IMG/VR virus record: IMGVR_UViG_3300031853_000003 | Coordinates: 1-64,000 of that record | Length of the DNA: 64,000 nucleotides | Reading direction: 5' to 3' (one strand) | Origin: a virus | Lineage: Duplodnaviria > Caudoviricetes | In this document: positions 3,914 to 54,463 of the stretch, piece by piece | Layout of the letters: every line of letters begins with the position of its first letter | How positions within the stretch are numbered: position 1 is the stretch's first letter | Notes under the pieces: generated by a model | Seen by the model: the letters and a program-made list of their open reading frames with translations, nothing else | The model's database searches: none | What the model was told of the DNA's origin: nothing | Program-made: the position numbers and the translations under genes

Positions 3914-5989
3914 ATGGCAAACATCATTGTCAATGAAATCAGCCAAAATTATACATATAATATTGGCAATTCCGCATTTGCAACTGTTGCACTTCCCATC
4001 ACCGCCAGCTGGGGTCCTGCATATGGTAAGCCGGGCGAGGCCTTCTCTACTGCTGAAGTAGATCAGCTTGAGAGCATCCGTTGGGAACATTTCCCGTCTA
4101 CTCAGGCAGGCCTTGAGAGTTTTGTATCTACCTATCGTGGACCGGCGTCTGTCTACAGAGCTGCTAAGGACTATTCTTACCAGATGGCAATGACCCTGCT
4201 GTCAAGCGGATATGACGTTCTTGTTGTTCGTCTGTGCCCCGGTACTAAGTCCGCTGGTCAGCTACTAAAGGTCAAATTCACCGATGAGTCTACCGACAAG
4301 TATTTCACCATCGCGCTTACTGCTAAGTATCCCGGCACCTTTGGTAACAATCTGAAGGTAAGAGTCTACACCGGCAGATTCAAAAACCTTGAGGGCGATT
4401 ACAGTCCTTACTTCAACCTCATCACCTATGTAGTAGATTCTTCTGGTGTTGAGCGTGCAGTAGAAAACATCGTTGTTTCTACTAACGCAGATGACGACAC
4501 TTATACCTACTACGAAGAGGCTGAGTCTAACTTCATTGATATCAATTCAATTGAAGAGACTTCCGCTCCTGGTCAGAATGAGTCATCTTCTGAATTCGTT
4601 CGTCTTTCCGGCGGTACTGATAATGCAACTTGGGGCTCAACTCCTGGTGCTATCATTCCTCAGATCCTCGCCGCTGCTATGCACAGATTCGACGAGACTC
4701 ATGAATATGTAAAGGCCATCGAAGCGTTGATGGTAGAGAGCACTCCCGTTGCTTCTTCGCTCCCGGTAGACTGGTCAACCAGCTACGTGAATTACGTCAA
4801 GAAGTCCAATGACGAATATGTAGCTGCTGCTGCGACAGATACATTCGCTGCCAATACCTTCTACGAGGTAAAGGTTAAGGATATCACCAAGCTGAAAGCT
4901 GCTGCATACAGAGAGTGGATCTTCTCTTCGCTAACATTCACATATGATCATACCGAGGCCACCAAGGGCTACAAGGGTACAACCGGTCTGTACTATCTGC
5001 TGACCGACAAGCTGTCCTACAAGCCTCAGAGAATCATCAGCCCTGGCTGGGACGATGTGGATCTTACATACTTCCAGAAGAACCAGATGTATCCCGACAG
5101 ATGCTTCGGTACCACGGCTGTTGTAAGCAAGGTGCTGTCAGCTATCCACATCACATTGATGGAGGTAGCATACAGAAGCAGATGCGGAACCTCTATGCTC
5201 GACATTCCGAGAAGCGTACCGAGAAAGTTCGTCCATGCAGAGATCAACTCAACTAACGTCCATTACACCGAGGCGTTAGCAGACCTCACGCCTGTTGATT
5301 CCACCAACACTCTTGAGAGTCTGTATACTTCCCACTCAGCTCTGTTTGCTCCTTGGGGCAGTTACAGATACGTCGGCATGAATCGTCAGATAGACGCTTG
5401 CCCGTCATTCCTCGTCCTGCTCATCCAAAGAGCAATGATCCTCAATCAGTCGTTACAGTATGAGTGGGCACTTCCTACAAACAGAAAGCACAACGTGCCG
5501 ATCGGCAAGCTCGAGTACCCGGTACCGAAGAAGTACATGGACATGTGGTCAAGACTCGAAGGTGTAAGCCTGAACGCCATCACATCTATTCCGGACCTCG
5601 GCGTCAACATCTGGGGTAACTCAACCCTCTTCAAAGTACCTGCTGCAACATATCAGGCACTTGCGAATCTGTCAACTCGTTATCTTGTCAATGCTGTTGA
5701 AAACGTCGTTTACGCTTGCGGCGTAGCAATCACATTCCAGTACAACAACGAGCAGGCATACAACAAGTTCTACGCAGGCGTAACACCTACGCTTGATACG
5801 ATGAAGAACGTCGGAGCTATCGAAGATTATTACATCAAGATGGCTGCTGACATCCGCGGAATGGATCAGGTCAATGCCAATAGCGTAATTGGTAAGATCT
5901 ACCTTATCGTCAACGGTGTCATCAACGACATCACAGTCGACCTCGTTGCCCTGCCGCCTAACGCAGATCTCGAGCAGTACAAGGCATAA
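3914..5989 (+). CDS. Contractile tail sheath protein
   Basis: WGP, AKYPGTFGNNLKV, LSGGTD, GVNIWGNSTL, LSTRYLVN and FQYNN sheath motifs. Confidence 0.92.
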   Translation: MANIIVNEISQNYTYNIGNSAFATVALPITASWGPAYGKPGEAFSTAEVDQLESIRWEHFPSTQAGLESFVSTYRGPASVYRAAKDYSYQMAMTLLSSGYDVLVVRLCPGTKSAGQLLKVKFTDESTDKYFTIALTAKYPGTFGNNLKVRVYTGRFKNLEGDYSPYFNLITYVVDSSGVERAVENIVVSTNADDDTYTYYEEAESNFIDINSIEETSAPGQNESSSEFVRLSGGTDNATWGSTPGAIIPQILAAAMHRFDETHEYVKAIEALMVESTPVASSLPVDWSTSYVNYVKKSNDEYVAAAATDTFAANTFYEVKVKDITKLKAAAYREWIFSSLTFTYDHTEATKGYKGTTGLYYLLTDKLSYKPQRIISPGWDDVDLTYFQKNQMYPDRCFGTTAVVSKVLSAIHITLMEVAYRSRCGTSMLDIPRSVPRKFVHAEINSTNVHYTEALADLTPVDSTNTLESLYTSHSALFAPWGSYRYVGMNRQIDACPSFLVLLIQRAMILNQSLQYEWALPTNRKHNVPIGKLEYPVPKKYMDMWSRLEGVSLNAITSIPDLGVNIWGNSTLFKVPAATYQALANLSTRYLVNAVENVVYACGVAITFQYNNEQAYNKFYAGVTPTLDTMKNVGAIEDYYIKMAADIRGMDQVNANSVIGKIYLIVNGVINDITVDLVALPPNADLEQYKA

Positions 5990-6055: not shown

Positions 6056-6078
6056 TTGAATATGAAGGAGTATTGTCC

Positions 6079-21256: not shown

Positions 21257-21262
21257 TCGTTA
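21257..21262 (+). promoter_or_regulatory. TCGTTA motif
   Basis: Upstream of 21297. Confidence 0.55.
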
Positions 21263-21296
21263 AACACATCATAAACATATCATATGAGGTGATAAC

Positions 21297-21671: not shown

Positions 21672-21681
21672 ACCTTATATA
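21672..21681 (+). promoter_or_regulatory. ACCTTNNATA motif
   Basis: ACCTTATATA before a cluster of leader-bearing genes. Confidence 0.65.
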
Positions 21682-21720
21682 GATACAGTCGAGAATAGAT
21701 TCTCAAGGTAGGTGAATGTC

Positions 21721-22032
21721 ATGAAGAGGGTATTATCAGCAACTACTCTCAAGGGTAGCGATAAGGGAAAGCTCCTTGAAGCACTCTTAGAGATAACTGA
21801 TGCTGTACCACTTCCTGACGACAGATACTCTTGGGATCTCAAGATTCATGATGAACCCGACTCACTTGGCGTCACATTTATAGTCAAGTGGTATGATGAA
21901 GATGTCGATCAATGGTATCGTAACATAGAAGAGTACGGTACTACAATCGACGAAATTATCGCTAACAACGACTTCTATGAGGACATGATTGAATTCTTGT
22001 CTCATGAAGTTGAAGGTAGCGGATACGTGTAA
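21721..22032 (+). CDS. Acidic protein with basic leader (MKRVLSAT)
   Basis: AGGTG RBS; shared N-terminal motif. Confidence 0.7.
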   Translation: MKRVLSATTLKGSDKGKLLEALLEITDAVPLPDDRYSWDLKIHDEPDSLGVTFIVKWYDEDVDQWYRNIEEYGTTIDEIIANNDFYEDMIEFLSHEVEGSGYV

Positions 22033-22045
22033 GGAGTTGAAACAT

Positions 22046-22393
22046 ATGAAGCCTAGAAAGTTTACTGTATCTCCGAAGGCAGTAACTGCCTCTAAGGACA
22101 CAGTATTTTCCGGTACAGATGATCACAGAACTAACTCTCGTCTTCTCATCGGTACTGATGTTGAAGCTACTTTGGGCTACGCCATTGATGGCCTCATCGA
22201 TATTTTCACGACCAAATTAGAGCAGTCAGCTGATAACATCAGCTTCGCCAACAAGAATCTGAGAGGTATTCAGTACTTTGTCAGCATCATAGAAGATTGT
22301 ATGCCTGACGACCTCACAGATTACAAGATTTCAAGACGTGATATGATCATGCACGATGATGATACATCATGGGCTGAAATCAACAACTCATGA
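22046..22393 (+). CDS. Protein with basic leader (MKPRKFTVSPKAVTAS)
   Basis: AAGGAG RBS places the start at 22046. Confidence 0.7.
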   Translation: MKPRKFTVSPKAVTASKDTVFSGTDDHRTNSRLLIGTDVEATLGYAIDGLIDIFTTKLEQSADNISFANKNLRGIQYFVSIIEDCMPDDLTDYKISRRDMIMHDDDTSWAEINNS

Positions 22394-22414
22394 TTTAACA
22401 GTGGGAGAATTGAT

Positions 22415-22675
22415 ATGGCAAGAAGAAAATTCACTGTAATGGCTGACAGCAACAATGATGATATCAAAAGAGCTGCAAGAGCAGAAGCAGAGTGGAGCGC
22501 AAGACTTTCATACAAAAACATCGAACGAATAGCAGATGATCTCGCACAGCTTCTTGATGACGTAAGCAGGATGGACAATGTGAATGATTACCTTGACGAA
22601 TACGATCTTGATCACATCGGCAGTGCTGTTGATGCACTGTATGACTTTGCACAAGCAAAAGCGAACGACGAATAA
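22415..22675 (+). CDS. Acidic protein with basic leader (MARRKFTVMADS)
   Basis: GGGAG RBS. Confidence 0.7.
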   Translation: MARRKFTVMADSNNDDIKRAARAEAEWSARLSYKNIERIADDLAQLLDDVSRMDNVNDYLDEYDLDHIGSAVDALYDFAQAKANDE

Positions 22676-22700
22676 ACCATCTTACAACGAAAACAGAACC
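22629..22700 (+). repeat. Degenerate direct repeat, copy 1 (copy 2 at 23673-23737)
   Basis: TTGATGCACT...AAGCGAACGA.GAATAA...TCTTACA shared by both copies. Confidence 0.75.
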
Positions 22701-22825
22701 TGACACGCCTCTCAAAGAAGCGTACCACGTCAGGCCATATAAGAAACATCTCCGCTAGGTACAGATTACTTAGCGGAGATGTTTGCGCAGCAAGGAAAAT
22801 CAAATTTGTTAAGGAGATTTGAGCT

Positions 22826-23668
22826 ATGAAAAGAGTAATAAACGCCACCACAGACGGAGCTAGCTTAAAAAGTAAGTTAGCAGGATATGAAGATGAAATT
22901 TACACTGCCATCCAAGATCAGTTCCCTGGATTATCTATTCAACCTGAAAATATCGTGATTGACGAACTTCACATACATTTACAGGATTTAAGCATACAAG
23001 AACTAATGATGAATGTTATGTCAGAAGAGGATTGGAGTCATACCTGGTATGTAAAAGATACTCCTAATCTAGTAGAGGATTTTCGAGATCCTGACATTGT
23101 AGATTATGTTATTTCTAAATTAGGTCCAACATTTAATGAATCTTACTTTGTTACTATTTTTAAGGAAACGATACGAGCAAGCTCAGCTTCAGAATTGTTT
23201 GAGCGTGTTGTCCGGAGTATCAGTAGCAATGGCTCATACACTTTCATTGCTACTGAACATGAAATCATTTCTGCGGTACTGCAATATGAGCTGACGGTCA
23301 AGGGAAATTTTGCAGATCCCGAATATTTCAGATGGATGACTGTGAAAGAGTTGTTTGGAAGTAACCCTGTGTTTGATGAAACAGGAGATATTGAATCTGA
23401 CCTCGATACTGCATATTCGGAATTAGAATCTGCAATATCTGAAATAGTTCCAGGATTTAGTATTTCTGTAGATAGATCAGACTCCGCCAGAGGGCAATTC
23501 GTAGACGTTGCGAATTTCAACTTTGCAAATAAAACAAGAAGAATAACTCTCAAATCTGTAGATTTGCTAAAACCGCATGCTTCAAGAGGCGTTAAGGGTC
23601 TGATGATGCACATACTCAATCGATTATCTGGAAAATCAAGGAAAGGTGTAAGTGACATTCGCAATTGA
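22826..23668 (+). CDS. Acidic protein with basic leader (MKRVINATT)
   Basis: AAGGAG RBS; AT-richer than neighbours. Confidence 0.75.
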   Translation: MKRVINATTDGASLKSKLAGYEDEIYTAIQDQFPGLSIQPENIVIDELHIHLQDLSIQELMMNVMSEEDWSHTWYVKDTPNLVEDFRDPDIVDYVISKLGPTFNESYFVTIFKETIRASSASELFERVVRSISSNGSYTFIATEHEIISAVLQYELTVKGNFADPEYFRWMTVKELFGSNPVFDETGDIESDLDTAYSELESAISEIVPGFSISVDRSDSARGQFVDVANFNFANKTRRITLKSVDLLKPHASRGVKGLMMHILNRLSGKSRKGVSDIRN

Positions 23669-23672
23669 TCAC

Positions 23673-23737
23673 TTGATGCACTATGCGATTTCGTACAAGC
23701 GAACGATGAATAACTTGTCTTACAGTGAAGCAGCACC
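23673..23737 (+). repeat. Degenerate direct repeat, copy 2
   Basis: Relic of the 3' end of gene 22415-22675. Confidence 0.75.
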
Positions 23738-23760
23738 AGATTCCAAGGTGCTGCTTTTAT
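23728..23760 (+). terminator. Intrinsic terminator
   Basis: AAGCAGCACC...GGTGCTGCTT-TTAT. Confidence 0.75.
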
Positions 23761-23771
23761 TTGTGTAAAAA

Positions 23772-23777
23772 TCGTTA
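23772..23777 (+). promoter_or_regulatory. TCGTTA motif
   Basis: Upstream of 23793. Confidence 0.55.
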
Positions 23778-23792
23778 TGTATAGTAACACAC

Positions 23793-24386
23793 ATGAGAAA
23801 GAGGATAAGATACATGTTCAAGAATGATGTATTTCAGTTAGTGAATGAGCGGCCATGCGGTGATCCTACATGTTGGTCATTCGACGTTGAGTTTGATGAA
23901 CCTACTACCGTGTATGACTTTCTCAAAGAGGTTTCGACGAAACTTCGTCGAAATAGTATTCAGGTGGAGCACGGTACTGTAACTATCTATGACAAGCTGT
24001 ATCCATCTATCGAAGATGTTAAAAACGCTATATCTATCAGTTACAGACCAGACGGAGGCATGGACATAGATAGCTTGCCTGTAGAGATACTGCAGTCATA
24101 CATTCATTCCGCGAAAGCTGATGGCGGTTGGGGATTGATGAATTATGATCTGTATCTGTCAAAAGGCGACGAGGAATCTGAACTCAACTCTCGAGCAAGA
24201 TTCATCAAAACAACAGATGAACAGAATGAACGTATCACAAAGATACGCAAAGCATTCTCTGACATATACAACGCAGTCGAAGACATATGCGAATCCGGAC
24301 GAGAAACATCACTCGTCTTCACTAAGCTCGAAGAAGCACAGTTTTGGGCGATCAAAGGCATAACACGAGAGGATGTGAGGAAATGA
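23793..24386 (+). CDS. Unknown N-terminal domain fused to an Acb2/Tad1-like helical hairpin
   Basis: C-terminal ICESGRETSLVFTKLEEAQFWAIKGITR. Confidence 0.6.
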   Translation: MRKRIRYMFKNDVFQLVNERPCGDPTCWSFDVEFDEPTTVYDFLKEVSTKLRRNSIQVEHGTVTIYDKLYPSIEDVKNAISISYRPDGGMDIDSLPVEILQSYIHSAKADGGWGLMNYDLYLSKGDEESELNSRARFIKTTDEQNERITKIRKAFSDIYNAVEDICESGRETSLVFTKLEEAQFWAIKGITREDVRK

Positions 24387-24574
24387 CCGTAGAGGAACTG
24401 ATAGGTTCATGCGAGAACCTTGAAGACATCGACGTCACAATATATTGCAGTGACACTCAAGAATTCAGCGGCCAAGGCTGCGATGTACCTGAACAGCTAG
24501 GTTATCTCTCAGTAGACCACTACAGCCTAGAAACATTTCATAGCAAGGTACATGTGCTCATCTCTGCAGAGTAA
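24383..24574 (+). CDS. Small hypothetical protein
   Basis: ATGA overlap with the upstream stop. Confidence 0.55.
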   Translation: MTVEELIGSCENLEDIDVTIYCSDTQEFSGQGCDVPEQLGYLSVDHYSLETFHSKVHVLISAE

Positions 24575-24585
24575 CAGAAAAGTCG

Positions 24586-24595
24586 ACCTTTAATA
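24586..24595 (+). promoter_or_regulatory. ACCTTNNATA motif (extended AAAGTCGACCTT form) followed by a 12-bp hairpin
   Basis: AAAGTCGACCTTTAATA; TAGCTGTGATAA/TTATCACAGCTA. Confidence 0.65.
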
Positions 24596-24642
24596 GCTGT
24601 GATAAATATTATCACAGCTAATTCGATGTAAAGAGAGGTCAT

Positions 24643-24972
24643 ATGATGAAACGAACATTCACAAAGAGGCCTGTTACAGCTTCAACTCAATCACCTGTAG
24701 AAGGAGATTACAGAGAGTTTTTCTGGAAACACGTCAATGGAGAGCTTCGTATCTATTCGTCACGTACTGGGTGGGAGTATTGTGTATGCGAGTTGGAAGC
24801 AAGTAAATTTGACACCAAGCGTGCTTCTGCCGATATTCTGTGTATCATTCGTTGTAGCGACGAAGGTTATGAATTTCCACTTGAGGAGAATACTTGTTTC
24901 ATGTTCGGTGCAGGTTCGTCTACTGTAGAAGATGTAATTGATACAATCGTAGAACACTGGCCAGTTGAATAA
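24643..24972 (+). CDS. Protein with basic leader (MKRTFTKRPVTAS)
   Basis: GAGGT RBS. Confidence 0.75.
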   Translation: MMKRTFTKRPVTASTQSPVEGDYREFFWKHVNGELRIYSSRTGWEYCVCELEASKFDTKRASADILCIIRCSDEGYEFPLEENTCFMFGAGSSTVEDVIDTIVEHWPVE

Positions 24973-24999
24973 CGCTAGCTGTCAGGTAGATCTTTGCAG

Positions 25000-25028
25000 A
25001 GCGTCGTACATTCTGTGCGACGCTTTTC
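25000..25028 (+). terminator. Intrinsic terminator
   Basis: AGCGTCGTACA-ttc-TGTGCGACGCT-TTT. Confidence 0.7.
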
Positions 25029-25034
25029 TATGAA

Positions 25035-25040
25035 TCGTTA
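25035..25040 (+). promoter_or_regulatory. TCGTTA motif
   Basis: Upstream of 25082. Confidence 0.55.
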
Positions 25041-25081
25041 AACAACATATCAAGCTAATCATAACATATGGAGGCATAATC

Positions 25082-25807
25082 ATGAATACAGATGCAGCTG
25101 TTAGGGACACATATGTGCGACATGTTGAAAATCAGACAACTTGGCTCAAAGAGATCTGCAGAGAAGTTTCCATGCAGAGCACTGTTACACTCAGTTACTT
25201 AGATGCTCTGAGGACAAGAATATCGATTACAGCTGATGCACTCAATGCAAGATTACCATACATCTCTGATGAAATTGATAATCCTGAAAGTTATGACGAG
25301 TTCAAGGATTTGCCGCTGTCTGAGCTTGAAGTTGTTTTTGATAACTGGAGGAAGTATAAACTTCTCCAGAAGAGCTTTTCGACTATCCAATCAACTATCA
25401 GTTCTCTTGAAAAGGCAGTTGATAGAATAGATAATCTCAACAGATCACTGTTGTTCACGAATAAGGGCGAAATTCCAAACGAGAAGCCAATTTCAAGATC
25501 AAAATCAATCGACCTGTTGATTGATATAGAGAATGCAGTATCTCAGGAAGTTGATCCAGCTGAGCTGATGTGCAACCCTACACAGCGTAGCGAATCACTT
25601 GTACGAGATTATTTCTGTACACTTGTAGCAGAGATTCTCAGATCGTCGCTTCGTCCTGTCGATATAACCGATAAACTTCTTTCTGCGCTTAGGGAAGAAA
25701 ATCGTCATAAGCTGTATTGGGCTTGCCAAACAATTTTAGGCCAGTGTTCTATTGCATACTGTATAGATTTGTATGCTATCAACAAGACGACGACATTGCT
25801 GGAATGA
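25082..25807 (+). CDS. Helical hypothetical protein
   Basis: GGAGG RBS. Confidence 0.75.
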   Translation: MNTDAAVRDTYVRHVENQTTWLKEICREVSMQSTVTLSYLDALRTRISITADALNARLPYISDEIDNPESYDEFKDLPLSELEVVFDNWRKYKLLQKSFSTIQSTISSLEKAVDRIDNLNRSLLFTNKGEIPNEKPISRSKSIDLLIDIENAVSQEVDPAELMCNPTQRSESLVRDYFCTLVAEILRSSLRPVDITDKLLSALREENRHKLYWACQTILGQCSIAYCIDLYAINKTTTLLE

Positions 25808-25842
25808 TCCTCAGGAACATAGAATTTAACTAGGAGGTCTAT

Positions 25843-26253
25843 ATGTCTAAAGCATTACTCATCAGCGTTGATGTAAAGGCTTGCGATAAGATATTTCGCC
25901 TAGGTCATGCTACAATTAAGATCAAAGGATCTCCTTGCAGAATAGGGCTCCCTTTCAAGGTGTATGTACATGAAAAGCAGCATAGGACTATTGAAGGAAT
26001 CGGCAGCGGCAGTGTAGTAGGAGAATTCATCTGCAAGAATATCATATACAGAGGTGACGCTGAATGTGAACTTGCGATAATCTGCCCTATGTACTATGAT
26101 ATGCCATTACACATCAAAGACTTCTGTAGGCCATGCGGACGTCCGCATGAATGCACTTGTGACTACTGTAAAGAGCATGGAGCAAGCAGTCCGCTATCCT
26201 CCGCACCAACTATATTTACATATGTAGAATCATTACCAGAGGGTGAGGTCTGA
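25843..26253 (+). CDS. ASCH/PUA-like domain protein
   Basis: ALLISV, PFKVYV, G.VVGEFIC, APTIFTYV; paralog of 37295. Confidence 0.55.
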   Translation: MSKALLISVDVKACDKIFRLGHATIKIKGSPCRIGLPFKVYVHEKQHRTIEGIGSGSVVGEFICKNIIYRGDAECELAIICPMYYDMPLHIKDFCRPCGRPHECTCDYCKEHGASSPLSSAPTIFTYVESLPEGEV

Positions 26254-26330
26254 TGTTAGAATCAAATTATCTCAAGCGATCAATGATTCATACGCTGTTC
26301 TATAACTAGGTGTCTCGTAACATATGCGAC

Positions 26331-26340
26331 ACCTTTTATA
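26331..26340 (+). promoter_or_regulatory. ACCTTNNATA motif
   Basis: ACCTTTTATA before 26400. Confidence 0.65.
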
Positions 26341-26399
26341 ATGATGTTATATACTTTGTAACAATGCGATCAAATATCTGAAAGGTGAGGTAGATTAAC

Positions 26400-26855
26400 A
26401 TGAAAAGAAAGTTCACTAAAGCACCAGTAGCTGCTGCAGCGGAGCCGACCAACAATATCTCTTCTGCTTCTACTGTACTTAGTATGTTATCTGAAGCAGG
26501 AATTGACACAACTAAACATCAATATGTAGCACGGAGTGTAGACGGTGATGGCGAGGTCTCGGAACTCAGATTTTATGCTCCAGGCGACTGGATGGCGTTA
26601 TGGGTCACCCAAACCGGTGATGTCCCTACGTTTGAAAGTATGTGTGCCAGATTCAACGGTGTTGAAGAACTGATAGATAATCTGGAGTGGCATATAAGTA
26701 AATATCCTTCCGTGGATAAATTCAGGTTCGGGGAACATGTAACTTCGTGGAGTAACCAAAAAGAACTGCACACATTTGAGTTATACAACAATGATACAGG
26801 TGACCTTCTTATAGGTGATTACTTTATATCTGATGTATCAGAGTATGATTGGTAG
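26400..26855 (+). CDS. Acidic protein with basic leader (MKRKFTKAPVAAA)
   Basis: GAGGT RBS. Confidence 0.75.
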   Translation: MKRKFTKAPVAAAAEPTNNISSASTVLSMLSEAGIDTTKHQYVARSVDGDGEVSELRFYAPGDWMALWVTQTGDVPTFESMCARFNGVEELIDNLEWHISKYPSVDKFRFGEHVTSWSNQKELHTFELYNNDTGDLLIGDYFISDVSEYDW

Positions 26856-26907
26856 TGTTACTAATTGCTACGAAGCAGGAATTGGTTAATATCTACTAAC
26901 AAAGTCG

Positions 26908-26917
26908 ACCTTTAATA
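26908..26917 (+). promoter_or_regulatory. ACCTTNNATA motif (extended AAAGTCGACCTT form)
   Basis: AAAGTCGACCTTTAATA. Confidence 0.65.
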
Positions 26918-26992
26918 TCTGTAGATGGGATGACCATCTCGCGATCCTAGATGATAGAAACTTATCAATTTTAATCAAGGAGGCCATAATTT

Positions 26993-27445
26993 ATGAAAAA
27001 GATGATACGTTCTAGTACGATTTCCGTATACCATGATAGCGTTCCGGATGATTTTTATCAAAATCCTAGCAGAGATACGATTGCTAGCTATCGGAAACTG
27101 GCTGAGCAGATTAAGGCGTTAAAACTGCCATATGTCCGTGTTGAGCCCAGACAATCTTATGTTCGTATCAGATATGCACAAAAGATCAAGCGTAGAGATT
27201 ACGACATGTTCCTTGAATCTTATCCTGAAGTAGCTCCTATTAACCACTGCATGACCATCGATGTATCTACCCTGTTAGAAAATATCTCTAACGATGTTGC
27301 AAACAATATTTGTAATAGCATCGAAGGGGTTCATGTTGAGGTTCTTATTCACGATTATAACAACACCATCAGGTGGCTTGGCGACGTTGATACACTTCAC
27401 CCTATAGATGATTTGTCCTTCCTTATGCATGTTACGTTTGAGTAG
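26993..27445 (+). CDS. Protein with basic leader (MKKMIRSS)
   Basis: AAGGAGG RBS. Confidence 0.75.
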   Translation: MKKMIRSSTISVYHDSVPDDFYQNPSRDTIASYRKLAEQIKALKLPYVRVEPRQSYVRIRYAQKIKRRDYDMFLESYPEVAPINHCMTIDVSTLLENISNDVANNICNSIEGVHVEVLIHDYNNTIRWLGDVDTLHPIDDLSFLMHVTFE

Positions 27446-27456
27446 GTGTAAAGTCG

Positions 27457-27466
27457 ACCTTAAATA
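27457..27466 (+). promoter_or_regulatory. ACCTTNNATA motif (extended form) followed by an 11-bp hairpin
   Basis: AAAGTCGACCTTAAATA; GCAGCATCACT/AGTGATGCTGC. Confidence 0.65.
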
Positions 27467-27524
27467 AATGCAGCATCACTTTCTATGAGTGATGCTGCTA
27501 TTACTTTGTTTGGAGTGAAACACT

Positions 27525-27962
27525 GTGAAAAGAACATTTACTAAGACGCCAATTACTTCTGCAAAGAAAACTAACCCAGTAGCTGAAGCATTAGATAGCT
27601 ACATTGTGGATGTGTTTTCTCCTAAGCTCAATCAATACTTAGATACGTTTCTTGCACGTAAGTTTGATGATGACGAGTACTATGCTCAGTATCTTGAGTG
27701 CATGGATGATGACGAAGAGATGAGAGCAACATGTTCCGTGAGGTCAATGGTAGCCAGCATCAAAAACAGGGACGACGGAGACGGTCAATGGGACGAGTAC
27801 AATCAAGAGGTTGCATGGGCACTCATCTATTTGCTTGATAATATCAGCGCAAGTTTCTTAGCAGAGATACTGGAGGATAAAATCAACTCAAAGTATTCGT
27901 TCATATATGAAACAAATACAGATGCTGGAACACCTCTAGCAGATATCATATTCAACCATTGA
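27525..27962 (+). CDS. Acidic protein with basic leader (MKRTFTKTPITSA)
   Basis: GGAGTG RBS, GTG start. Confidence 0.75.
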   Translation: MKRTFTKTPITSAKKTNPVAEALDSYIVDVFSPKLNQYLDTFLARKFDDDEYYAQYLECMDDDEEMRATCSVRSMVASIKNRDDGDGQWDEYNQEVAWALIYLLDNISASFLAEILEDKINSKYSFIYETNTDAGTPLADIIFNH

Positions 27963-27976
27963 GAGGTGACATTATA

Positions 27977-28411
27977 ATGAGGAGATACGTTGCGTATCCG
28001 GTGATAGCTGCTAAATCATTAGATGATATAGTTAATCACATCAGCGATAAGCTGAACGTTGGTCATGTAAGGTATTCTGTGACACCTGATCCAGATAATC
28101 CTGGTACAGTACTTGTTATGAATCTGAACAACGGAAAGAAGAAATTACTCAATGTAGGATATCGTAAGAAGCCTGGCAAAGGCAAAAACTACTTGCCTTG
28201 GAGCTCTGATTATACAGTTAACGCATATGGAGAAGTGTATGACAGTGAAGGAAATCTTGTAGGTAACGCAAAGGTGTGGCCCGCAGAGTCAAACACAACT
28301 CGTTACAGAAAAGATTATCTCTTTGAAGGCGAGTACGACCACAACCCAACTGACATGCGTAAACTTGACAAGTCGAATGGTTGGGATGAATTCAAAGAAA
28401 CATTAGAATGA
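27977..28411 (+). CDS. Protein with basic leader (MRRYVAYPVIAA)
   Basis: GAGGTG RBS places the start at 27977. Confidence 0.7.
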   Translation: MRRYVAYPVIAAKSLDDIVNHISDKLNVGHVRYSVTPDPDNPGTVLVMNLNNGKKKLLNVGYRKKPGKGKNYLPWSSDYTVNAYGEVYDSEGNLVGNAKVWPAESNTTRYRKDYLFEGEYDHNPTDMRKLDKSNGWDEFKETLE

Positions 28412-28418
28412 AGTCAGT

Positions 28419-29069
28419 CTAACACACATAAACATCAACACCTAAATCATAGACGGAGATGAACCCTTGTTGGTCCATCTCCTCTTTTGTTAGGTGCTTC
28501 TGTCGCCTAGACGCATCAGACAGTATGTCCTTTCCTCTAATCCACCATTTAGTTTTCTGTATACTCCTAGAGTACTGCATACCAATAGACTTGTATGCTT
28601 CAACATCCTCAAACGACTTGTATACATATGCAACAATGTTATACACACCGAGTTCAGATGCATATTGAGAAATGCGTTGATATCCACCTTTCACATACAC
28701 ACCTGGAAGCATCCACATGCGGGACAGCTCAGAATAATACTGTTTGTTCCTAGACTTCTTAAACGTCATGATGCAATACAGTGTGTCTTCGTCACATAGC
28801 CCAAGAGCAAGTACTGTACCTCTAGGAGCCTTAAGAGGATGATGCTTGTTGAGCCAGTCATTTGCAAAATCAAGATTAAGCTTCAACATATTCAATTCAT
28901 TAGCATCAATCGTCTTTTCCGTACAAGGATTGTCCCAAACAATAGTATTCCGTTTTTTCGCAAAAGCAGCTCTCCGCTTCTTCTGCACACTCTCAAGTTT
29001 GGAGACGTTATCAACTCCATATCTCTGATTTACTGTCTCAATTCGTATCTGATTAGAATCAAGTTTCAT
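28419..29069 (-). CDS. Stand-alone Mom/GNAT-like domain homologous to the C-terminus of the Hef-like proteins
   Basis: QRYGVDN repeat; FANDWLNKHH, CIMTF, ELSRMW, GFISVYDLG. Confidence 0.6.
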   Translation of the reverse strand: MKLDSNQIRIETVNQRYGVDNVSKLESVQKKRRAAFAKKRNTIVWDNPCTEKTIDANELNMLKLNLDFANDWLNKHHPLKAPRGTVLALGLCDEDTLYCIMTFKKSRNKQYYSELSRMWMLPGVYVKGGYQRISQYASELGVYNIVAYVYKSFEDVEAYKSIGMQYSRSIQKTKWWIRGKDILSDASRRQKHLTKEEMDQQGFISVYDLGVDVYVC

Positions 29070-29754
29070 ATGGGTCTCCTTTGTTCAGTAATTTAGCATC
29101 ACGGACTGCATATCTATTGAATTCATAGCATTTATCTTTCATAACTAATTTATTCAAGATGTAATCTGGTGCAGTTATTTCCGGAAACATTGAAAATAGC
29201 CGACAGGTGAGTATATCTGTCATAACAATGTTTTGAAGTGATTGGTCAAGTTCGTTGAACTGTTCTATGAATCGATAGCGTCCAATTTCGCACATATTTC
29301 CAATACATGTAGCAGCACCTGCGTAATTCTTTATGTATCGATTTGCATCTTTAACATCAAAGAAACTGAAGTATAGGTTACAAGCTTCTTGTACATCTTT
29401 ATGAAGAACGTGTTTGCAAAATTCTGGTGTTATTTGTAACCAATAAGGTATCCTTATAACTGAGTATCCGAGCTGTTTGTAGTAGAAGTCCTTAGATATA
29501 TCAGCAAACACAGTTGCAGAAGATTGGTAATGCGGTAGACCGTCTACTTCAATCACTAGATTGAGTTCTTCGCATCTTGCGTCCGGTTTATACGCATGCT
29601 GTTTTATACCTAATTTATTTCGTCTATCAAATACATCTGGTGGTATCCTCTCGTCATATATGAAGATATCATCAGGATACAAATGGTCAAGATACGTTTT
29701 CAACGATGTAGATGTTGAGTCGTCTGTCTTCTCTCTTAGATACTTATATTTCAT
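29059..29754 (-). CDS. DUF559/Vsr-like PD-(D/E)xK endonuclease
   Basis: YKPDARCEELNLVIEVDGLPHY...KD..YKQLGYSVIRIPYW. Confidence 0.7.
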   Translation of the reverse strand: MKYKYLREKTDDSTSTSLKTYLDHLYPDDIFIYDERIPPDVFDRRNKLGIKQHAYKPDARCEELNLVIEVDGLPHYQSSATVFADISKDFYYKQLGYSVIRIPYWLQITPEFCKHVLHKDVQEACNLYFSFFDVKDANRYIKNYAGAATCIGNMCEIGRYRFIEQFNELDQSLQNIVMTDILTCRLFSMFPEITAPDYILNKLVMKDKCYEFNRYAVRDAKLLNKGDPYET

Positions 29755-29776
29755 AGTGATACCTCCTTAGGTACAA

Positions 29777-29782
29777 TAACGA
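29777..29782 (-). promoter_or_regulatory. TCGTTA motif on the minus strand
   Basis: TAACGA on + strand, upstream of the only minus-strand operon. Confidence 0.6.
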
Positions 29783-29831
29783 ATTTGTAAATAAATATAT
29801 AATGTTAGTATTACCGCACAATATCAATCAC

Positions 29832-29841
29832 ACCTTACATA
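29832..29841 (+). promoter_or_regulatory. ACCTTNNATA motif
   Basis: ACCTTACATA before the tail tube gene. Confidence 0.6.
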
Positions 29842-29886
29842 CATATGTGAACACAAACAATACATTCACGAAAGGAAAGTGATTTC

Positions 29887-30435
29887 ATGTTTTCACCTCT
29901 AGCAATGGGTACCAACCATATGTTAGGTATTGACACCTTTGTACCGTTGACGGTCAACAATTTCGAAGTCAGGGTATATAACATGGACGGAACTCAGCCG
30001 ACCGAGTTCTCTGATCTGCTAACACTCAGTACTGATGAAGTAGGCAACATCTCAGAACAGCAGGACATCATCACTGTACACTACGGAAACGGACTCATCA
30101 AGTTCCCGTCGAAGGTACAGTTCCAGGATGTAGAATGGACACTGAACTGCTACTGCCAGCCTAACGTACTCGAGTCGCTCCGTGCTTGGAGAAAGCTCGT
30201 CTATGATCCGGACACAGAGAGAATGGGTCTGCCCTCAGAGTATATGAAGCAGGTATTCTTCATCAAGTACGACGGTCAGGGTAATGTTCGCGACGTAATC
30301 AGATGCCCAGGTACTTGGATTGGCGCACTCGATAACGGTGCCATGAACCAGACCGGCGGTGAACTCGTCAAGATCAAAGTACCGTTCATCATCTCTCGTG
30401 TAATCTACATGAGCCAGTCGGACATCCAGAAGTAA
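29887..30435 (+). CDS. Tail tube protein (T4 gp19-like)
   Basis: NNFEV, KFPSKVQF, L.AWRKLVYDPDT..MGLPSEYMK, KYDGQG, GTW. Confidence 0.85.
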   Translation: MFSPLAMGTNHMLGIDTFVPLTVNNFEVRVYNMDGTQPTEFSDLLTLSTDEVGNISEQQDIITVHYGNGLIKFPSKVQFQDVEWTLNCYCQPNVLESLRAWRKLVYDPDTERMGLPSEYMKQVFFIKYDGQGNVRDVIRCPGTWIGALDNGAMNQTGGELVKIKVPFIISRVIYMSQSDIQK

Positions 30436-30452
30436 TCTTGTATCTTAACAGA

Positions 30453-30483
30453 GCAGCCGAGCGAAGCAGTTCGGCTGCTTTTG
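30453..30483 (+). terminator. Intrinsic terminator
   Basis: AGCAGCCGAG...TTCGGCTGCT-TTT. Confidence 0.75.
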
Positions 30484-30495
30484 TTGTGTGTAAAA

Positions 30496-30501
30496 TCGTT
30501 A
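30496..30501 (+). promoter_or_regulatory. TCGTTA motif
   Basis: Upstream of 30522. Confidence 0.55.
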
Positions 30502-30521
30502 AATTACGTGAGGTGAACAGT

Positions 30522-32177
30522 ATGTTGAAGGAAAAGAGCTGCGCAGAGTGCGGAAAGATTTTTCAGCCTAAATCTGGGACTCAAAGATACTGTCCAGGTC
30601 CGCATGTAGCCGTCTGCGAATTCTGCGGAAAGTCTTTCCAGTATTCTTGCTCACCGAAGGAGAAGCCTAGGTACTGTTCTCAACAGTGCATAAATGACGG
30701 CAAAAGACGGACGGTTCAGGCAAAGTACGGCGTAGAAAATGTATCGCAGTTGGATACTGTCAGAAAGAAGATAAGTGATGCAAACAGCTCAGATGAGGTT
30801 CAAGCAAAGCGTCGTCAAACTAGTTTACAGAATTGGGGAGTAGATAACCCTGCAAAGAACGAGGTTGTCAAGGCGAAGATGTCAGAGGTAATGTCATCAG
30901 AGGAATATCTTGACAATCGCCGGCAAACTTGTCTTGAACGGTATGGTACAGAGTCGCCGATGCAGAATGATGAGGTGAAGGCGAAACAGCATCAAACAAA
31001 CATTGATAGATACGGAATGACTGGACATCCTCATACTCGAGAAGATTTTATGAAAATGATGGTTGATCCTTCAAAAGTAGACGACTATCTCTCTTTCAGA
31101 TCAGATCCTGCATCATATATCACACTACACTATAGCGAACCTCCTTCCATATCTCAGCTGAAAGGCGCATTAGGTGTAACAGATACACCGATCTACAATG
31201 TATTGATAGCATATAACTGCAGTGATATGATATCGCATGTTTGCAGTAACATGGAAGAGGAAGTTGTCAGATTTCTTGAAAGTATTCTACCTCCGACAAA
31301 GATAATTCGCAACGATAGAACTGTTATCAAACCTTATGAGATTGATATCTATCTCCCCGAGTACAAGATAGGTATTGAATGCAATCCTGCATCAACTCAC
31401 AATTCTTCTAAGAGTGATCCTTGGGGCGCACCGCCTAAATCATATAAGTATCACCAGACCAAGTCATTACTTGCACAAAAGAACGATGTATTTCTATTTC
31501 ATATCTTTGGATATGAATGGATCAATAATAGAGATAAGATTGAATACATGTTGATGAATCTCTTTCATGAGAATGTATCGTCTGTGGGAGCTCGTGAAAC
31601 TCAAGTGTCAATTGTTCCACATAAAGACGCAAAGAAGTTTCTAGAGGAGAATCATCGTCAAGGTTATACATCCTTTAACTTGAATCTTGGCCTATATACT
31701 AAGAAAGATATAGAACGAGGTAAACTCAATCTTGTAGCTTTGATGACATTCAGTCATACAAGGCCTACAATGGGCAAAACATCTTCTGATGATGAAGATA
31801 CATGGGAGCTTTCACGATTCTGTACTCGAGTAGGTACAAATGTTCCTGGAGGTGCAAGCAAACTTTTCAAAACATTCTTATGGCTTGCAAAACCTAAGAA
31901 GGTCATTTCGTTCTCTGATGTAGCACATACACGCGGAAAGTTGTATGAAATACTCGGATTCAAACAGATGTCAATGTCTGCTCCAAGTTACGTTTGGTGC
32001 GATATCTATGATAACCGATATTTTCATAGAGTGTCCTGTCAGAAACGAAATCTGAGGAAGTTATTTGATGACGACACAATAGATATAGACCACATGACGG
32101 AACGTGAGATCATGGAATCTCGTGGATTTGTCAGGGTGTATGATTGTGGAGTAATCAGATGGGAGTACACAGTATGA
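30522..32177 (+). CDS. Hef-like homing endonuclease, paralog of 6079-8088
   Basis: Same architecture: CxxC, KYGVEN/ERYG repeats, GVTDTP, EIDIYLPEYKIGIECNP, ELSRFC..GGASKLF. Confidence 0.7.
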   Translation: MLKEKSCAECGKIFQPKSGTQRYCPGPHVAVCEFCGKSFQYSCSPKEKPRYCSQQCINDGKRRTVQAKYGVENVSQLDTVRKKISDANSSDEVQAKRRQTSLQNWGVDNPAKNEVVKAKMSEVMSSEEYLDNRRQTCLERYGTESPMQNDEVKAKQHQTNIDRYGMTGHPHTREDFMKMMVDPSKVDDYLSFRSDPASYITLHYSEPPSISQLKGALGVTDTPIYNVLIAYNCSDMISHVCSNMEEEVVRFLESILPPTKIIRNDRTVIKPYEIDIYLPEYKIGIECNPASTHNSSKSDPWGAPPKSYKYHQTKSLLAQKNDVFLFHIFGYEWINNRDKIEYMLMNLFHENVSSVGARETQVSIVPHKDAKKFLEENHRQGYTSFNLNLGLYTKKDIERGKLNLVALMTFSHTRPTMGKTSSDDEDTWELSRFCTRVGTNVPGGASKLFKTFLWLAKPKKVISFSDVAHTRGKLYEILGFKQMSMSAPSYVWCDIYDNRYFHRVSCQKRNLRKLFDDDTIDIDHMTEREIMESRGFVRVYDCGVIRWEYTV

Positions 32178-32395
32178 ATTATATGTCATGGATAGACGAC
32201 GTAGAACAGGATATTCAGAGAGTGAATAGTATAATCACTAGGAAATCTCAGAAACTTCGTTCTGGTGGTGATATGACTGTTTCTAAGGTGCTATCTCTGC
32301 GCACAGAGTTACAAGCATGGCGCGAAATACGGCGTGAGCTCTGGAACATGAAGCGTTCTCTTGAAAAGTTGGCGAAGGAGACGTCACATGCGTAA
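32174..32395 (+). CDS. Hypothetical protein
   Basis: ATGA overlap; GGGAG RBS. Confidence 0.6.
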   Translation: MNYMSWIDDVEQDIQRVNSIITRKSQKLRSGGDMTVSKVLSLRTELQAWREIRRELWNMKRSLEKLAKETSHA

Positions 32396-32606
32396 GACAG
32401 TAGAATTTCCTGCAGACAGAAACGGATATGATTGTGTCCATTGTTTCTGGGAGAACATCAACTGGGGCGACAATGGACACTGCAGACATTGTAGACGAGA
32501 ATATGCGGAGAAACTCTTGCAAGGTACTCCGCCAGATACAGTTGTATGTATACGATATGACGGAACGGAGGTATGTTATGGACATAAAACTAAAGTGGCG
32601 AGGTAG
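32388..32606 (+). CDS. Small Cys-containing hypothetical protein
   Basis: AAGGAG RBS; CVHC/CRHC. Confidence 0.55.
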   Translation: MRKTVEFPADRNGYDCVHCFWENINWGDNGHCRHCRREYAEKLLQGTPPDTVVCIRYDGTEVCYGHKTKVAR

Positions 32607-32895
32607 CGACGGAACTAACATATTAGATACAGGAGGATTCTTGTTACCGCTTGACAAGAAAGATGGTATCCCACGCCTAACTGATATGGTCAGTATCCAA
32701 TACACTATCGGTCAAACTAATAGCGGTGTTTCAATCCGGTTTGCAAACAGACTTACATCCTATCGACTTTCTGAAGATTTCCAAGGATCTCTTGAAGAAG
32801 CACGGAATCTGTGCGAAGAGCATCTCCAGACCATCATGGAGGAACTCTGCTGGCAGATTAAACAAGCCCTACTCAACAGGAGGTCAGATGAATAA
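32578..32895 (+). CDS. Hypothetical protein
   Basis: GGAGGT RBS. Confidence 0.6.
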   Translation: MDIKLKWRGSDGTNILDTGGFLLPLDKKDGIPRLTDMVSIQYTIGQTNSGVSIRFANRLTSYRLSEDFQGSLEEARNLCEEHLQTIMEELCWQIKQALLNRRSDE

Positions 32896-33211
32896 ACTAG
32901 TATTTGAACCGACACACTTAGGGTCGACAGCAAAGGTGAAGGCACACCTGCCTGCATATGATATATCATATACACTCTACACATTTGAGATTGAACCACA
33001 TGGCTATGATATGACTACACATCTTCCTGCTAGTTATCAGGTTGTAGTATATCTAGGAGAGCCTTGGCAGCATAGCATCATCTTTCACAAGGATACATGT
33101 GACGATATCTACGAAGCTGAGAGATTCTGTCAAGGTCTGTACGAATTACTTCTGCAAGGTCTCTGTCATCTGTCTGATGAACCTTCTATACGTGTGAATA
33201 TAAATACATAG
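32888..33211 (+). CDS. Hypothetical protein
   Basis: AGGAGGT RBS. Confidence 0.6.
   Translation: MNKLVFEPTHLGSTAKVKAHLPAYDISYTLYTFEIEPHGYDMTTHLPASYQVVVYLGEPWQHSIIFHKDTCDDIYEAERFCQGLYELLLQGLCHLSDEPSIRVNINT
33181..33190 (+). promoter_or_regulatory. ACCTTNNATA motif
   Basis: ACCTTCTATA before the 33225 operon. Confidence 0.6.
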
Positions 33212-33224
33212 GAGTGATACAACT

Positions 33225-33407
33225 ATGGTAGATCTAAATGCTATTCCAAAGCCTGGCGAATACCTTGTAACTTCAATCGCAGATCTTGCAAATATTCCTG
33301 CTGCTGCTCCGGTTGGTAGTCTTGCAATTATAGCTACTAGTGACAGCGTGACGGTAAGAGTAAAGCGGACAGAAGGCTCCGCTGCATCTAACTGGAAAGA
33401 ACTATAA
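33225..33407 (+). CDS. Small putative virion decoration protein
   Basis: AGGAG RBS; behind the late motif. Confidence 0.55.
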   Translation: MVDLNAIPKPGEYLVTSIADLANIPAAAPVGSLAIIATSDSVTVRVKRTEGSAASNWKEL

Positions 33408-33420
33408 GAGGTGGTCGACT

Positions 33421-33894
33421 ATGTTATCTGCTAGAATGGCCATGATGGTTGCTATTTCAGTTGCAAAAAGCTACACAAACAAAGAATGCGACAGAGTTGA
33501 GCGTGCTGGATTCAAAGCTGTTGTTATGCAGGATAGATCCATACTCCAGTCCACAGGACAGTATAAGATCCTATACTTCCTGCCGAAGACAACATCTAAG
33601 CCGCAAGACGGATATGATGAATTCATATACACATCGGATAACCAGTGGGAAGAGGTCGGTCATACAGATATAGACCTCTCTGCGTATGCTACTATGGAGT
33701 GGGTCGTTGATCTGTTGATGACCGCACATATTGACGAGAATGGGCACCTGCTTTTCACGCTTCCTGATGGATCAGACTTTGATGTCGGAAATGTTGTAGG
33801 TCCCCAAGGTGAGTCATATGTTCTGACTGAGAACGACAAGAATGATATTGCACAGATAGTGTATGATATGATGCAGCCGGAGGAAGAACCATGA
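33421..33894 (+). CDS. Putative head/tail fibre-like virion protein
   Basis: LYFLPK...YDEFIY...WEEVGHTDIDLSAYAT and a GPQG segment typical of phage fibres. Confidence 0.55.
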   Translation: MLSARMAMMVAISVAKSYTNKECDRVERAGFKAVVMQDRSILQSTGQYKILYFLPKTTSKPQDGYDEFIYTSDNQWEEVGHTDIDLSAYATMEWVVDLLMTAHIDENGHLLFTLPDGSDFDVGNVVGPQGESYVLTENDKNDIAQIVYDMMQPEEEP

Positions 33895-34148
33895 AACGAG
33901 TAATTACAGCATCAGCTAAAAGACGTTCTGCTATATGCGGACTTGCTGATATCAGCCCTGAGTCCAAGCGTACTGCAGCAGGACTTGCTGTCGGAGATTG
34001 CGTTTACGATGAAGATCTGGATACACTCTTTGTTGTAAGCAACATCGAGAGCGGCAAAGATGGGACCGTAGTAGTGACAGACGAAGAAGGCGAAACTTAC
34101 TACTACGATCCAAATGATACTCTGTATTGGCAGGCCAACAATCGTTAA
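33891..34148 (+). CDS. Acidic protein with basic leader (MKRVITAS)
   Basis: GGAGG RBS; ATGA overlap. Confidence 0.7.
   Translation: MKRVITASAKRRSAICGLADISPESKRTAAGLAVGDCVYDEDLDTLFVVSNIESGKDGTVVVTDEEGETYYYDPNDTLYWQANNR
34142..34147 (+). promoter_or_regulatory. TCGTTA motif
   Basis: Upstream of 34181. Confidence 0.5.
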
Positions 34149-53486: not shown

Positions 53487-53909
53487 ATGAAGTTCTACGA
53501 CACCTTAATTCCATATATAACAATAGAACACACAGGTATTCAGTATACAACGTGTAAGGACTTCAAGCACATAAGTAGGTATCAATGTCTAAGACAAGTT
53601 ATTCACAATCCGCATGAGACAGATAGATTCACTACGCTTGAAACTACTAATCCGTTCATAACAAACACTGAGGTTGAATACTATGATGTACCCGCTGTGG
53701 AAGAGAACAGGCTTGACATCATTGCAAGTAAGTTCTTAGGCTCAGCACAATATGGTTGGGTCATCGCTTACTTCAATCATATAGAAGACGGCTTCACAGT
53801 GAAAGAGGGGCAGCGTATAATCATACCTAAGAGCATTTCAGCTCTGTTTGCAAAGGGTGAGATACTTGCGTCTGTTTCGCCATATCAATTGAATCTGGGA
53901 GAGGAATAA
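53487..53909 (+). CDS. LysM-like baseplate wedge protein (gp53/gpX-like)
   Basis: RLDIIASKFLGSAQYGWVIAYFN.I.D...G..I.IP. Confidence 0.75.
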   Translation: MKFYDTLIPYITIEHTGIQYTTCKDFKHISRYQCLRQVIHNPHETDRFTTLETTNPFITNTEVEYYDVPAVEENRLDIIASKFLGSAQYGWVIAYFNHIEDGFTVKEGQRIIIPKSISALFAKGEILASVSPYQLNLGEE

Positions 53910-54463
53910 TGAAAAGAGTGATCAACATGAACCCACGTCACAATGAGTACGATGCATATCTGGAACAGCATATTACAGGAGTGCAAAGAGCTTGGCACGA
54001 AATACTCGAGCCTGCACTTACTGATAACATAGATGTCATTGATATCACAGTAGAAGACTTTTCTACTATCGATGATCTTGTTAGACGTCATGATGAGTCT
54101 AAGTATCAGTCAGATGAATATGACGCTTATTGCAATTACTTCTATCCTTGTGAAGGATTTGAGAAAGATCAGGAAGCGTTTGATTTGGCCTGGCTTCATC
54201 ATAGCCACGTCAATCCTCATCATCACCAGTATTGGGTGCTTGTTCGTGAAGAAGGCGAGCTTGTTCCATTGGATATGCCGATACCATATATCTGCGAGAT
54301 GTTGTGCGACTGGCACTCCTTCACATTGAGAGATCCTGAATCAACTGCTTATAAGTGGTGGCAGGACAATCAACGCAAGATGACCTTATCTGATAACACA
54401 GTTGAGGTAATAGAAGCTATCATAGGCTTCATGAAAGAGCCATTATCTAAGCCCGAGGAGTGA
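53909..54463 (+). CDS. HD-domain protein (DUF5662-like)
   Basis: HI..V, HDESK, AWLHH.H.NPHH.QYW, EMLCDW. Confidence 0.7.
   Translation: MKRVINMNPRHNEYDAYLEQHITGVQRAWHEILEPALTDNIDVIDITVEDFSTIDDLVRRHDESKYQSDEYDAYCNYFYPCEGFEKDQEAFDLAWLHHSHVNPHHHQYWVLVREEGELVPLDMPIPYICEMLCDWHSFTLRDPESTAYKWWQDNQRKMTLSDNTVEVIEAIIGFMKEPLSKPEE

Follow-up and report, generated by a model that had tools for sequence, protein, structure and literature searches.

Background

Phage T4 carries on its internal proteins IPI-III and on Alt a capsid-targeting sequence (CTS; MKTYQEFIAE) of 10 residues, which is removed by gp21 at an L/I-x-E site (Mullaney & Black 1996; reviewed in PMC9026906, PMC3012670 and PMC8442874) and in which targeting (residues 4 and 7) and processing (residues 8 and 10) are separable (PMC9026906, PMC8442874, PMC3012670). 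The gp21-family enzymes of T4, phiKZ and SPN3US all cut after Glu (PMC9026906, PMC10052503), those of the giant phages (phiKZ gp175 and SPN3US gp245) at A/S/G-x-Glu sites (PMC10052503, PMC5694885). The herpesvirus assemblin, made as a UL26-type precursor, has release and maturation sites of the form YLQA-T and VQA-S (PMC4498786). Here we describe, in the first 64 kb (64,000 nucleotides; hereafter the window) of virus record IMGVR_UViG_3300031853_000003, a short basic N-terminal leader ending in [VI]-x-[AS] that is shared by otherwise unrelated proteins, ten of which are encoded between 21.7 and 34.1 kb (hereafter the island).

This leader is like the T4 CTS in that unrelated proteins bear it as a short N-terminal tag whose end is a site predicted to belong to a gp21-family protease, in the recurrence of that site in the predicted propeptide of a gp23-type capsid protein, in the location of variable tagged genes in a fast-changing locus, and in late expression; both tags start with MK and often have an aromatic residue at position 4. 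It differs from the CTS in its site ([VI]-x-[AS/G] here, [LI]-x-Glu in T4), in its commonest length (7 residues instead of 10), in the number of tagged genes per genome (7-19 instead of 3-4), in the charge of the bodies (acidic here, basic in T4), and in the scaffold-like coiled coil to which the protease is joined. We read the leader as a CTS-like targeting and cleavage propeptide for head assembly of the T4 type, with a site that does not require Glu, and give this reading a probability of roughly two in three. What is special here is the non-Glu, assemblin-like site, the seven-residue tag and the acidic nature of the presumptive cargo.

A basic leader on unrelated proteins

All 11 leader starts listed in the original prediction were found as described (Table 1); the start at 27525 is a GTG behind a GGAG site, and that at 24643/24646 is a double ATG. 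In-frame codon-usage scores of the open reading frames (ORFs) ranged from 0.18 to 0.36 (11/11), the off-frames being negative and the median of the other genes of 80-300 aa being 0.23. For the same residues the leader codons differ (AAG AGG GTA, AAA AGA GTA, AAA CGA GTA), and the leaders are therefore conserved as peptide rather than as copied DNA.

As a rule for the leader we required at least two K or R and no D or E before [VI]-x-[AS]-[ASTD], within the first 16 residues. Since this rule was written after seeing these cases, it was retested in related loci. In the present phage it matches 18 of the 212 predicted proteins, where internal windows would give 0.9, shuffled N-termini 1.8 and shuffled columns 2.9, while in the related loci (n = 23; IMG/VR, protease 39-55% identical) 29 of 434 distinct proteins match vs 5.5 expected. 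Across five genomes, the combination of [IV] at residue 5 and [AS] at residue 7 occurs in 29 of the 73 proteins that start M-[KR]-[KR] vs 40 of 940 others (Fisher P = 7e-18), with a sharp register peak at residue 5 (29 there, 0-5 at the neighbouring positions). The rule yields 72 leaders in these five genomes, most commonly of exactly 7 residues (27/72), with I or V at P3, A (n = 54) or S (n = 18) at P1, and A, S or D at P1'. Glu is not required at P1, and the leaders do not follow the [LI]-x-E rule. The 72 proteins fall into 59 BLAST families, 51 of which are singletons; all nine island genes that were scored are singletons, the tenth (27525) having been missed by the start picker and left out of this scoring. 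Enrichment, register and number of families together bear out the earlier claim that one type of basic leader precedes unrelated bodies.

Equally sound was the view that the leader lacks a hydrophobic core and is not a Sec signal: the commonest leader has only 7 residues, the longer ones are polar and basic, and none shows the hydrophobic core of ~7-15 residues between basic region and -3/-1 site that characterises substrates of Sec and signal peptidase I. The bodies, by comparison, had been called strongly acidic, which is only moderately true, as the island proteins have a pI of 4.1-5.3, with one at 6.4, for a proteome median of 5.4. Over the 72 leaders, the tagged bodies have a median pI of 4.5 vs 5.4 for other proteins, and the net charge over the first 30 residues past the site is -3 vs -0.5. 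In this they differ from the basic, DNA-associated internal proteins of T4.

The largest island protein, of 280 aa, was examined further. Nine homologues (67-94% identity) all retain M1, K2, R3, V4, I5 and A7, while residue 6 (P2) is free. In its predicted structure (pLDDT 75.5) residues 1-9 are disordered and the body is folded into two domains, for which Foldseek returned no significant match in PDB or BFVD (the best VIA hit, Z 5.9 over 78 residues, is within noise) and the ESM Atlas no usable one. The protein was not found in five related genomes, in IMG/VR or in JGI metagenome contigs. Searches of the ten island proteins against Pfam and PHROGs gave no credible family, and ten large tagged proteins of relatives yielded a single Pfam match. 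This is a 476-aa tagged protein (MKRYIMA-A) of the relative G001 (L036:15903-17333; 155903-157333) with BspA-type leucine-rich repeats (PF13306, E = 2e-37), the sole tagged protein with a recognisable domain.

Association of the leader with late-type units

The motif ACCTTNNATA occurs at 26 sites on the plus strand and 4 on the minus strand, mostly 29-85 nt upstream of starts, and heads the sheath operon, the tube gene, a 2557-aa gene, baseplate-region genes and five island units. As the original prediction had it, all 11 listed genes sit in units headed by this motif, and the TCGTTAWA-headed genes at 21297 and 25082 are devoid of a leader. When every gene was assigned, crudely, to the class of its nearest upstream motif, the leader was found in 18 of 84 genes of late-type units vs 1 of 100 genes of early-type units (P = 3e-6); an equal frequency among early genes, which would have spoken against the prediction, was not observed.

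TCGTTAWA is itself a second intergenic motif, with 18 sites in the whole genome at no more than 130 nt before a start. Replication-type and other genes devoid of a leader stand behind it (examples in the window are at 8063, 21257, 25035, 30496, 35981 and 39839), and it probably represents an early or middle promoter class.

Head protease and capsid protein

The genome has one recognisable head protease, at genome positions 67439-68830, which resembles T4 gp21 and continues into a coiled-coil scaffold part. Of its 463 aa, the first ~165 match head-maturation proteases and the remainder is a coiled coil. It hits phrog_207 (E = 5e-22) and also Peptidase_S77 (PF03420; E = 1e-5), the latter at 25.2 bits, slightly short of the 27-bit cut-off, and tblastn matched it to the gp21 genes of KVP40 and other phages. 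Neither phmmer nor a profile built from 15 protease-domain sequences yielded a sequence match in PDB; only the fold search did, the best PDB match of the protease-domain model being T4 gp21 (5jbl; E = 2e-5, probability 1.0 in Foldseek), followed by the proteases of HCMV, PrV, HSV, EBV, VZV and KSHV (E = 0.02-0.5). Proteases of the Prp, S78 and ClpP types were absent from the complete genome in searches that included positive controls. The gene that follows the protease encodes a Gp23-like capsid protein (PF07068, E = 7e-16). With a gp21-like protease and a Gp23-like capsid protein, head assembly is therefore of the T4 type.

The original prediction had proposed looking for the [VI]-x-[AS] site in the capsid and scaffold proteins, and it is present both at the predicted capsid border and past the protease domain. 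Among 18 relatives, the capsid N-terminus is variable and basic, contains several I-T-[AS]-G motifs, and ends in [IV]-[TM]-[AG], with A or G at P1; right after this border come a conserved A-T-N-T and then A-R-P-D/E-F. For the present phage this predicts a capsid propeptide of 79 residues with a net charge of +14, bordered by I-T-A before ATNT. In the protease, [IV]-A-A-S directly past the protease domain is invariant (15/15 sequences), further motifs lie in the coiled-coil part, and the protease-scaffold protein as a whole has the top motif density of the proteome (10 vs 2.8 expected). Its scaffold part has a net charge of -13, and the conserved tagged head proteins range from -7 to -52.

Variability and co-variation among relatives

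Four related genomes that are complete or nearly so (138-159 kb; CheckV 96-100%, two with direct terminal repeats) each have 7-19 tagged genes, most of which bear no relation to the others; in one of these genomes, ten genes of the MKKYI[KR][AS][AS] type stand in a row. The variable set of tagged proteins that had been proposed is evident from the window, whose ten island genes have no homologue in the four relatives, although the structural proteins are 45-77% identical. In the present genome, sheath and tube genes are separated by ~24 kb of clade-unique genes. In G000, G001 and G004 the tagged islands adjoin the sheath and tube genes or are located between them, those of G001 and G004 being in the same place as the island described here. 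The gene at 53909, whose leader is decayed, has in G001 a counterpart with the intact leader MKRYIRA-S.

Beyond the window, tagged genes start at genome positions 65120, 67439, 71788, 79795, 80031, 87705, 88291 and 113510. Seven of 19 tagged proteins are conserved; these are the ones near the head genes, and they are very acidic, with a net charge down to -52. Five orthologue families among the tagged head-module proteins (71788, 72229, 79795, 87705 and 65120) have leaders that drift in length and sequence, some of them with tandem double sites, while P3 and P1 keep their alignment to where the conserved body begins.

The leader also varies with the site of the lineage. Streptococcus phage GXN1 has a related protease and L-x-E motifs in its capsid protein and protease, and 6-7 of its genes start MRL[VI][RK]L.E, with almost none of the [VI]-x-[AS] type. 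As leaders and head sites of GXN1 are both L-x-E, the leader end therefore follows the site of the lineage in the two lineages compared. The SP15-like phages LIS04 and HSE3 have L-x-E-type motifs in the protease and capsid N-termini as well, and no obvious short leader family was found near their head genes. GXN1 (vB_SagM-GXN1) is a cultured Streptococcus agalactiae phage, most genes of which are unannotated in the record.

Surroundings of the island

The single record of which the window forms the beginning is 155,391 bp long, has direct terminal repeats and is rated complete. Nearly all genes are on the plus strand and have strong Shine-Dalgarno sites, and the sheath, tube and baseplate genes identify a phage with a contractile tail. 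No close DNA match to cultured phages was found, and a megablast of the island against them was empty. The features of the island and its surroundings are compiled in Table 1.

Four homing-endonuclease-like genes (HNH or zinc-ribbon) are dispersed across the sheath-to-tube interval and may help drive the turnover of island genes. The window also contains a classical diversity-generating retroelement (17312-17431, 18379-18498 and 18810-20117): the 2557-aa gene (9795-17468) has the variable repeat at its 3' end, the template repeat lies 1067 nt downstream, the reverse transcriptase matches phrog_1423, and 12 of 12 repeat differences fall at template adenines. Elsewhere, endolysin-like genes occur twice, at window 56434-57648 and at genome 75432-77192 (amidase type and glycosidase/peptidase type), and a tape-measure-like protein (57617-59701) also has lysin-like domains.

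Table 1. Tagged genes, promoter-type motifs and other features of the island and its surroundings (window positions unless another record is given)
Feature	Position	Strand	Remarks
103-aa protein	21721..22032	+	Leader MKRVLS-AT; body pI 4.1; no homologue in 4 relatives
115-aa protein	22046..22393	+	Long leader ending AVTA-S
86-aa protein	22415..22675	+	Leader MARRKFTVMA-D
280-aa protein	22826..23668	+	Leader MKRVINA-T; no fold match
108-aa protein	24646..24972	+	Leader MKRTFTKRPVTA-S
151-aa protein	26400..26855	+	Leader MKRKFTKAPVAA-A
150-aa protein	26993..27445	+	Leader MKKMIRS-S
145-aa protein	27525..27962	+	GTG start; leader (M)KRTFTKTPITS-A
144-aa protein	27977..28411	+	Leader MRRYVAYPVIA-A
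85-aa protein	33891..34148	+	Leader MKRVITA-S
184-aa protein (phrog_20637)	53909..54463	+	Decayed leader MKRVINMN
Late-type promoter motif ACCTTATATA	21672..21681	+	Heads unit 21721-23668
Late-type promoter motif ACCTTTAATA	24586..24595	+	
Late-type promoter motif ACCTTTTATA	26331..26340	+	
Late-type promoter motif ACCTTTAATA	26908..26917	+	
Late-type promoter motif ACCTTAAATA	27457..27466	+	
Late-type motif ACCTTCTATA	33181..33190	+	Heads unit 33225-34148
Early-type motif TCGTTAWA	21257..21264	+	Heads leaderless gene 21297-21656
Early-type motif TCGTTAWA	25035..25042	+	Heads leaderless gene 25082-25807
Tail sheath gene	3914..5989	+	Left edge of the variable interval with the island
Tail tube gene	29887..30435	+	Together with the sheath gene encloses nine tagged genes and the greater part of the variable interval
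Homing-endonuclease-like genes	6073-8088, 30438-32177	+	HNH / zinc-ribbon types
Homing-endonuclease-like genes	28419-29069, 29059-29754	-	Sole sizeable minus-strand genes of the interval
GXN1 leader genes	16635-16877, 16891-17241, 18451-18756		In L060 (PQ819873.1); four more in that genome

Discussion

Under the reading that we prefer, the leader would be a short N-terminal propeptide, usually of 7 and up to ~18 residues, whose basic front (M-K-[KR] and an aromatic or aliphatic residue) would, like the basic capsid propeptide, bind the acidic scaffold core of the prohead. After shell assembly, the gp21-family protease would cut at [VI]-x-[AS], less often at G, before a small or acidic residue and so free the body, the scissile bond, placed by analogy, being possibly off by one residue. 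The same protease would trim the basic 79-residue capsid propeptide between I-T-A and A-T-N-T, and would most likely release itself from its coiled-coil scaffold part between [IV]-A-A and S and then chop that part up. Two classes of tagged proteins may be distinguished: (i) a conserved and very acidic set adjoining the head genes, probably core or scaffold parts, and (ii) a lineage-specific set in the fast-changing interval, mostly between sheath and tube, which probably represents head-internal cargo like the T4 internal proteins. The conserved tagged proteins near the head genes do look more like parts of the scaffold core than like effectors. Of the packaging tag that the original prediction compared with the T4 CTS, a tag ending in a prohead-protease site is well supported, if indirectly, by the gp21-family protease, by the motif shared with capsid and protease, and by co-variation. 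The further proposal is more tentative, namely that in this clade P1 of the protease moved from Glu to Ala, Ser or Gly, the assemblin rule of herpesviruses, and that a portable 7-residue tag (M-K-[KR]-Y/V-[IV]-x-[AS]) loads at least 10 fast-turning, mostly acidic and lineage-specific proteins into the head for injection, some of them perhaps active against host defence as the DNA enters, for instance as DNA mimics; as a whole we hold it to be possible and rather doubtful, and an anti-defence role of the tagged proteins is a guess.

Several points weigh against the propeptide reading. All characterised gp21-family enzymes cut after Glu, so that a small P1 would be the first for the family, and an alignment of the clade proteases with three L-x-E-type proteases revealed no clear change in the pocket that explains such a switch. 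The model of the protease is of medium quality (pLDDT 63), and the proteases of two relatives are themselves without an N-terminal leader. The leader rule comes from the data themselves, with 1-3 false positives per genome, such as a QueC-like PP-loop protein and membrane proteins. Cleavage and packaging are both predictions from sequence. Lastly, the acidic bodies are unlike the basic T4 internal proteins and would better fit scaffold parts that are expelled than proteins retained with the DNA.

This last point leads to another explanation, in which the tag is indeed an address for the prohead core joined to a cut site, while the tagged proteins, those of the island included, are disposable acidic filler, degraded and expelled before DNA entry. 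The low pI of the bodies and their more negative charge past the site suit such a role, as do the conserved tagged proteins, which at a net charge of -30 to -52 are like scaffold proteins, and the leaders with two tandem sites; the core proteins of T4 (gp22, gp67 and gp68) are fragmented and lost from the head (PMC9026906). Yet the ten island proteins are lineage-specific singletons with no homologue among the four relatives, an unusual pattern for assembly parts, and the 280-aa protein is predicted to be folded (two domains, pLDDT 75) and has no excess of internal sites in a per-protein motif ranking. We regard this explanation as unlikely. A less probable account still, and in our judgement a very unlikely one, is that the tag is read by another machine, be it a phage ClpX-like unfoldase for which it is a degron, a host protease of the L27-type Prp kind, or signal peptidase I, its likeness to the capsid site being coincidental. 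M-basic-hydrophobic N-termini resemble one class of ClpX signals, and V-x-A before A fits the -3/-1 rule of signal peptidase I. An N-terminal degron, however, leaves unexplained why the motif is conserved internally, at the capsid maturation border and at the end of the protease domain; leaders of 7-13 residues are not Sec substrates because they have no hydrophobic core; and the phage has no Prp gene, the P2 and P3 residues being, in addition, unlike the F-A motif of L27.

Finally, the leader might have no function as a peptide and reflect a preference in translation initiation (A-rich codons 2-3) combined with chance, or be the remnant of duplicated gene starts. K is enriched 1.55-fold at residues 2-16 of all proteins, and an unbiased a-x-b pair scan of the N-termini did not single out V-x-A, only K-containing pairs coming out on top. 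This is hardly compatible with the tie of [IV]5 and [AS]7 to M-[KR]-[KR] and their sharp register, with the differing leader codons, or with the recurrence of the pattern on unrelated bodies in diverged genomes and its near absence from early-type units, and we give it next to no credence. A leader for a maturase of the radical-SAM/RiPP type was also considered and rejected, as the complete genome gave no match to PF04055, which matched in all 14 control genomes.

Coming back to the propeptide reading, the other described systems can be compared with it in the same terms as the T4 CTS. The giant phages likewise combine a diverged gp21-family protease, a three-residue motif, many head and ejection proteins, and redundant propeptide sites; they differ in that Glu is kept at P1, in that their propeptides are mostly long (111-254 residues) with no portable short tag, and in that ~80% of the SPN3US head proteins are uncut. 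Assemblin resembles it in the predicted cut-site rule (aliphatic-x-Ala, then Ser, Thr or Ala), in the order of protease domain and scaffold part with a conserved, here putative, site right past the protease domain, and in the fold class. The match to the herpesvirus enzymes is, however, weak (E ~0.02), T4 gp21 being clearly closer, and no loading of tagged cargo sets is known from herpesviruses. Prp is a host cysteine protease that cleaves the N-terminal leaders of L27 and of the capsid and scaffold proteins of Staphylococcus phage 80alpha. Its substrates resemble the present ones in having a short N-terminal leader that is removed after Ala, in Firmicute hosts; unlike here, the motif is hydrophobic-F-A before S, and the present phage, without a Prp gene, has a gp21-type enzyme of its own.

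If the propeptide reading is true, the head-internal proteins of a whole clade of uncultured phages are recognisable by a tag of seven residues, and these, a few dozen functionally unassigned proteins per genome, would be the first phage proteins met by the host cell, hence natural candidates for host take-over or counter-defence. The enzyme would also be the first of the gp21 family to cut after a residue other than Glu, and its assemblin-like site rule would bear on the evolution of specificity in an ancient shared fold. GXN1 is a cultivable system in which the leader-tag hypothesis could be tested. If the reading holds, such a short tag might also be employed for loading phages of anaerobic Firmicutes with foreign proteins, the way the T4 CTS is employed in E. 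coli.

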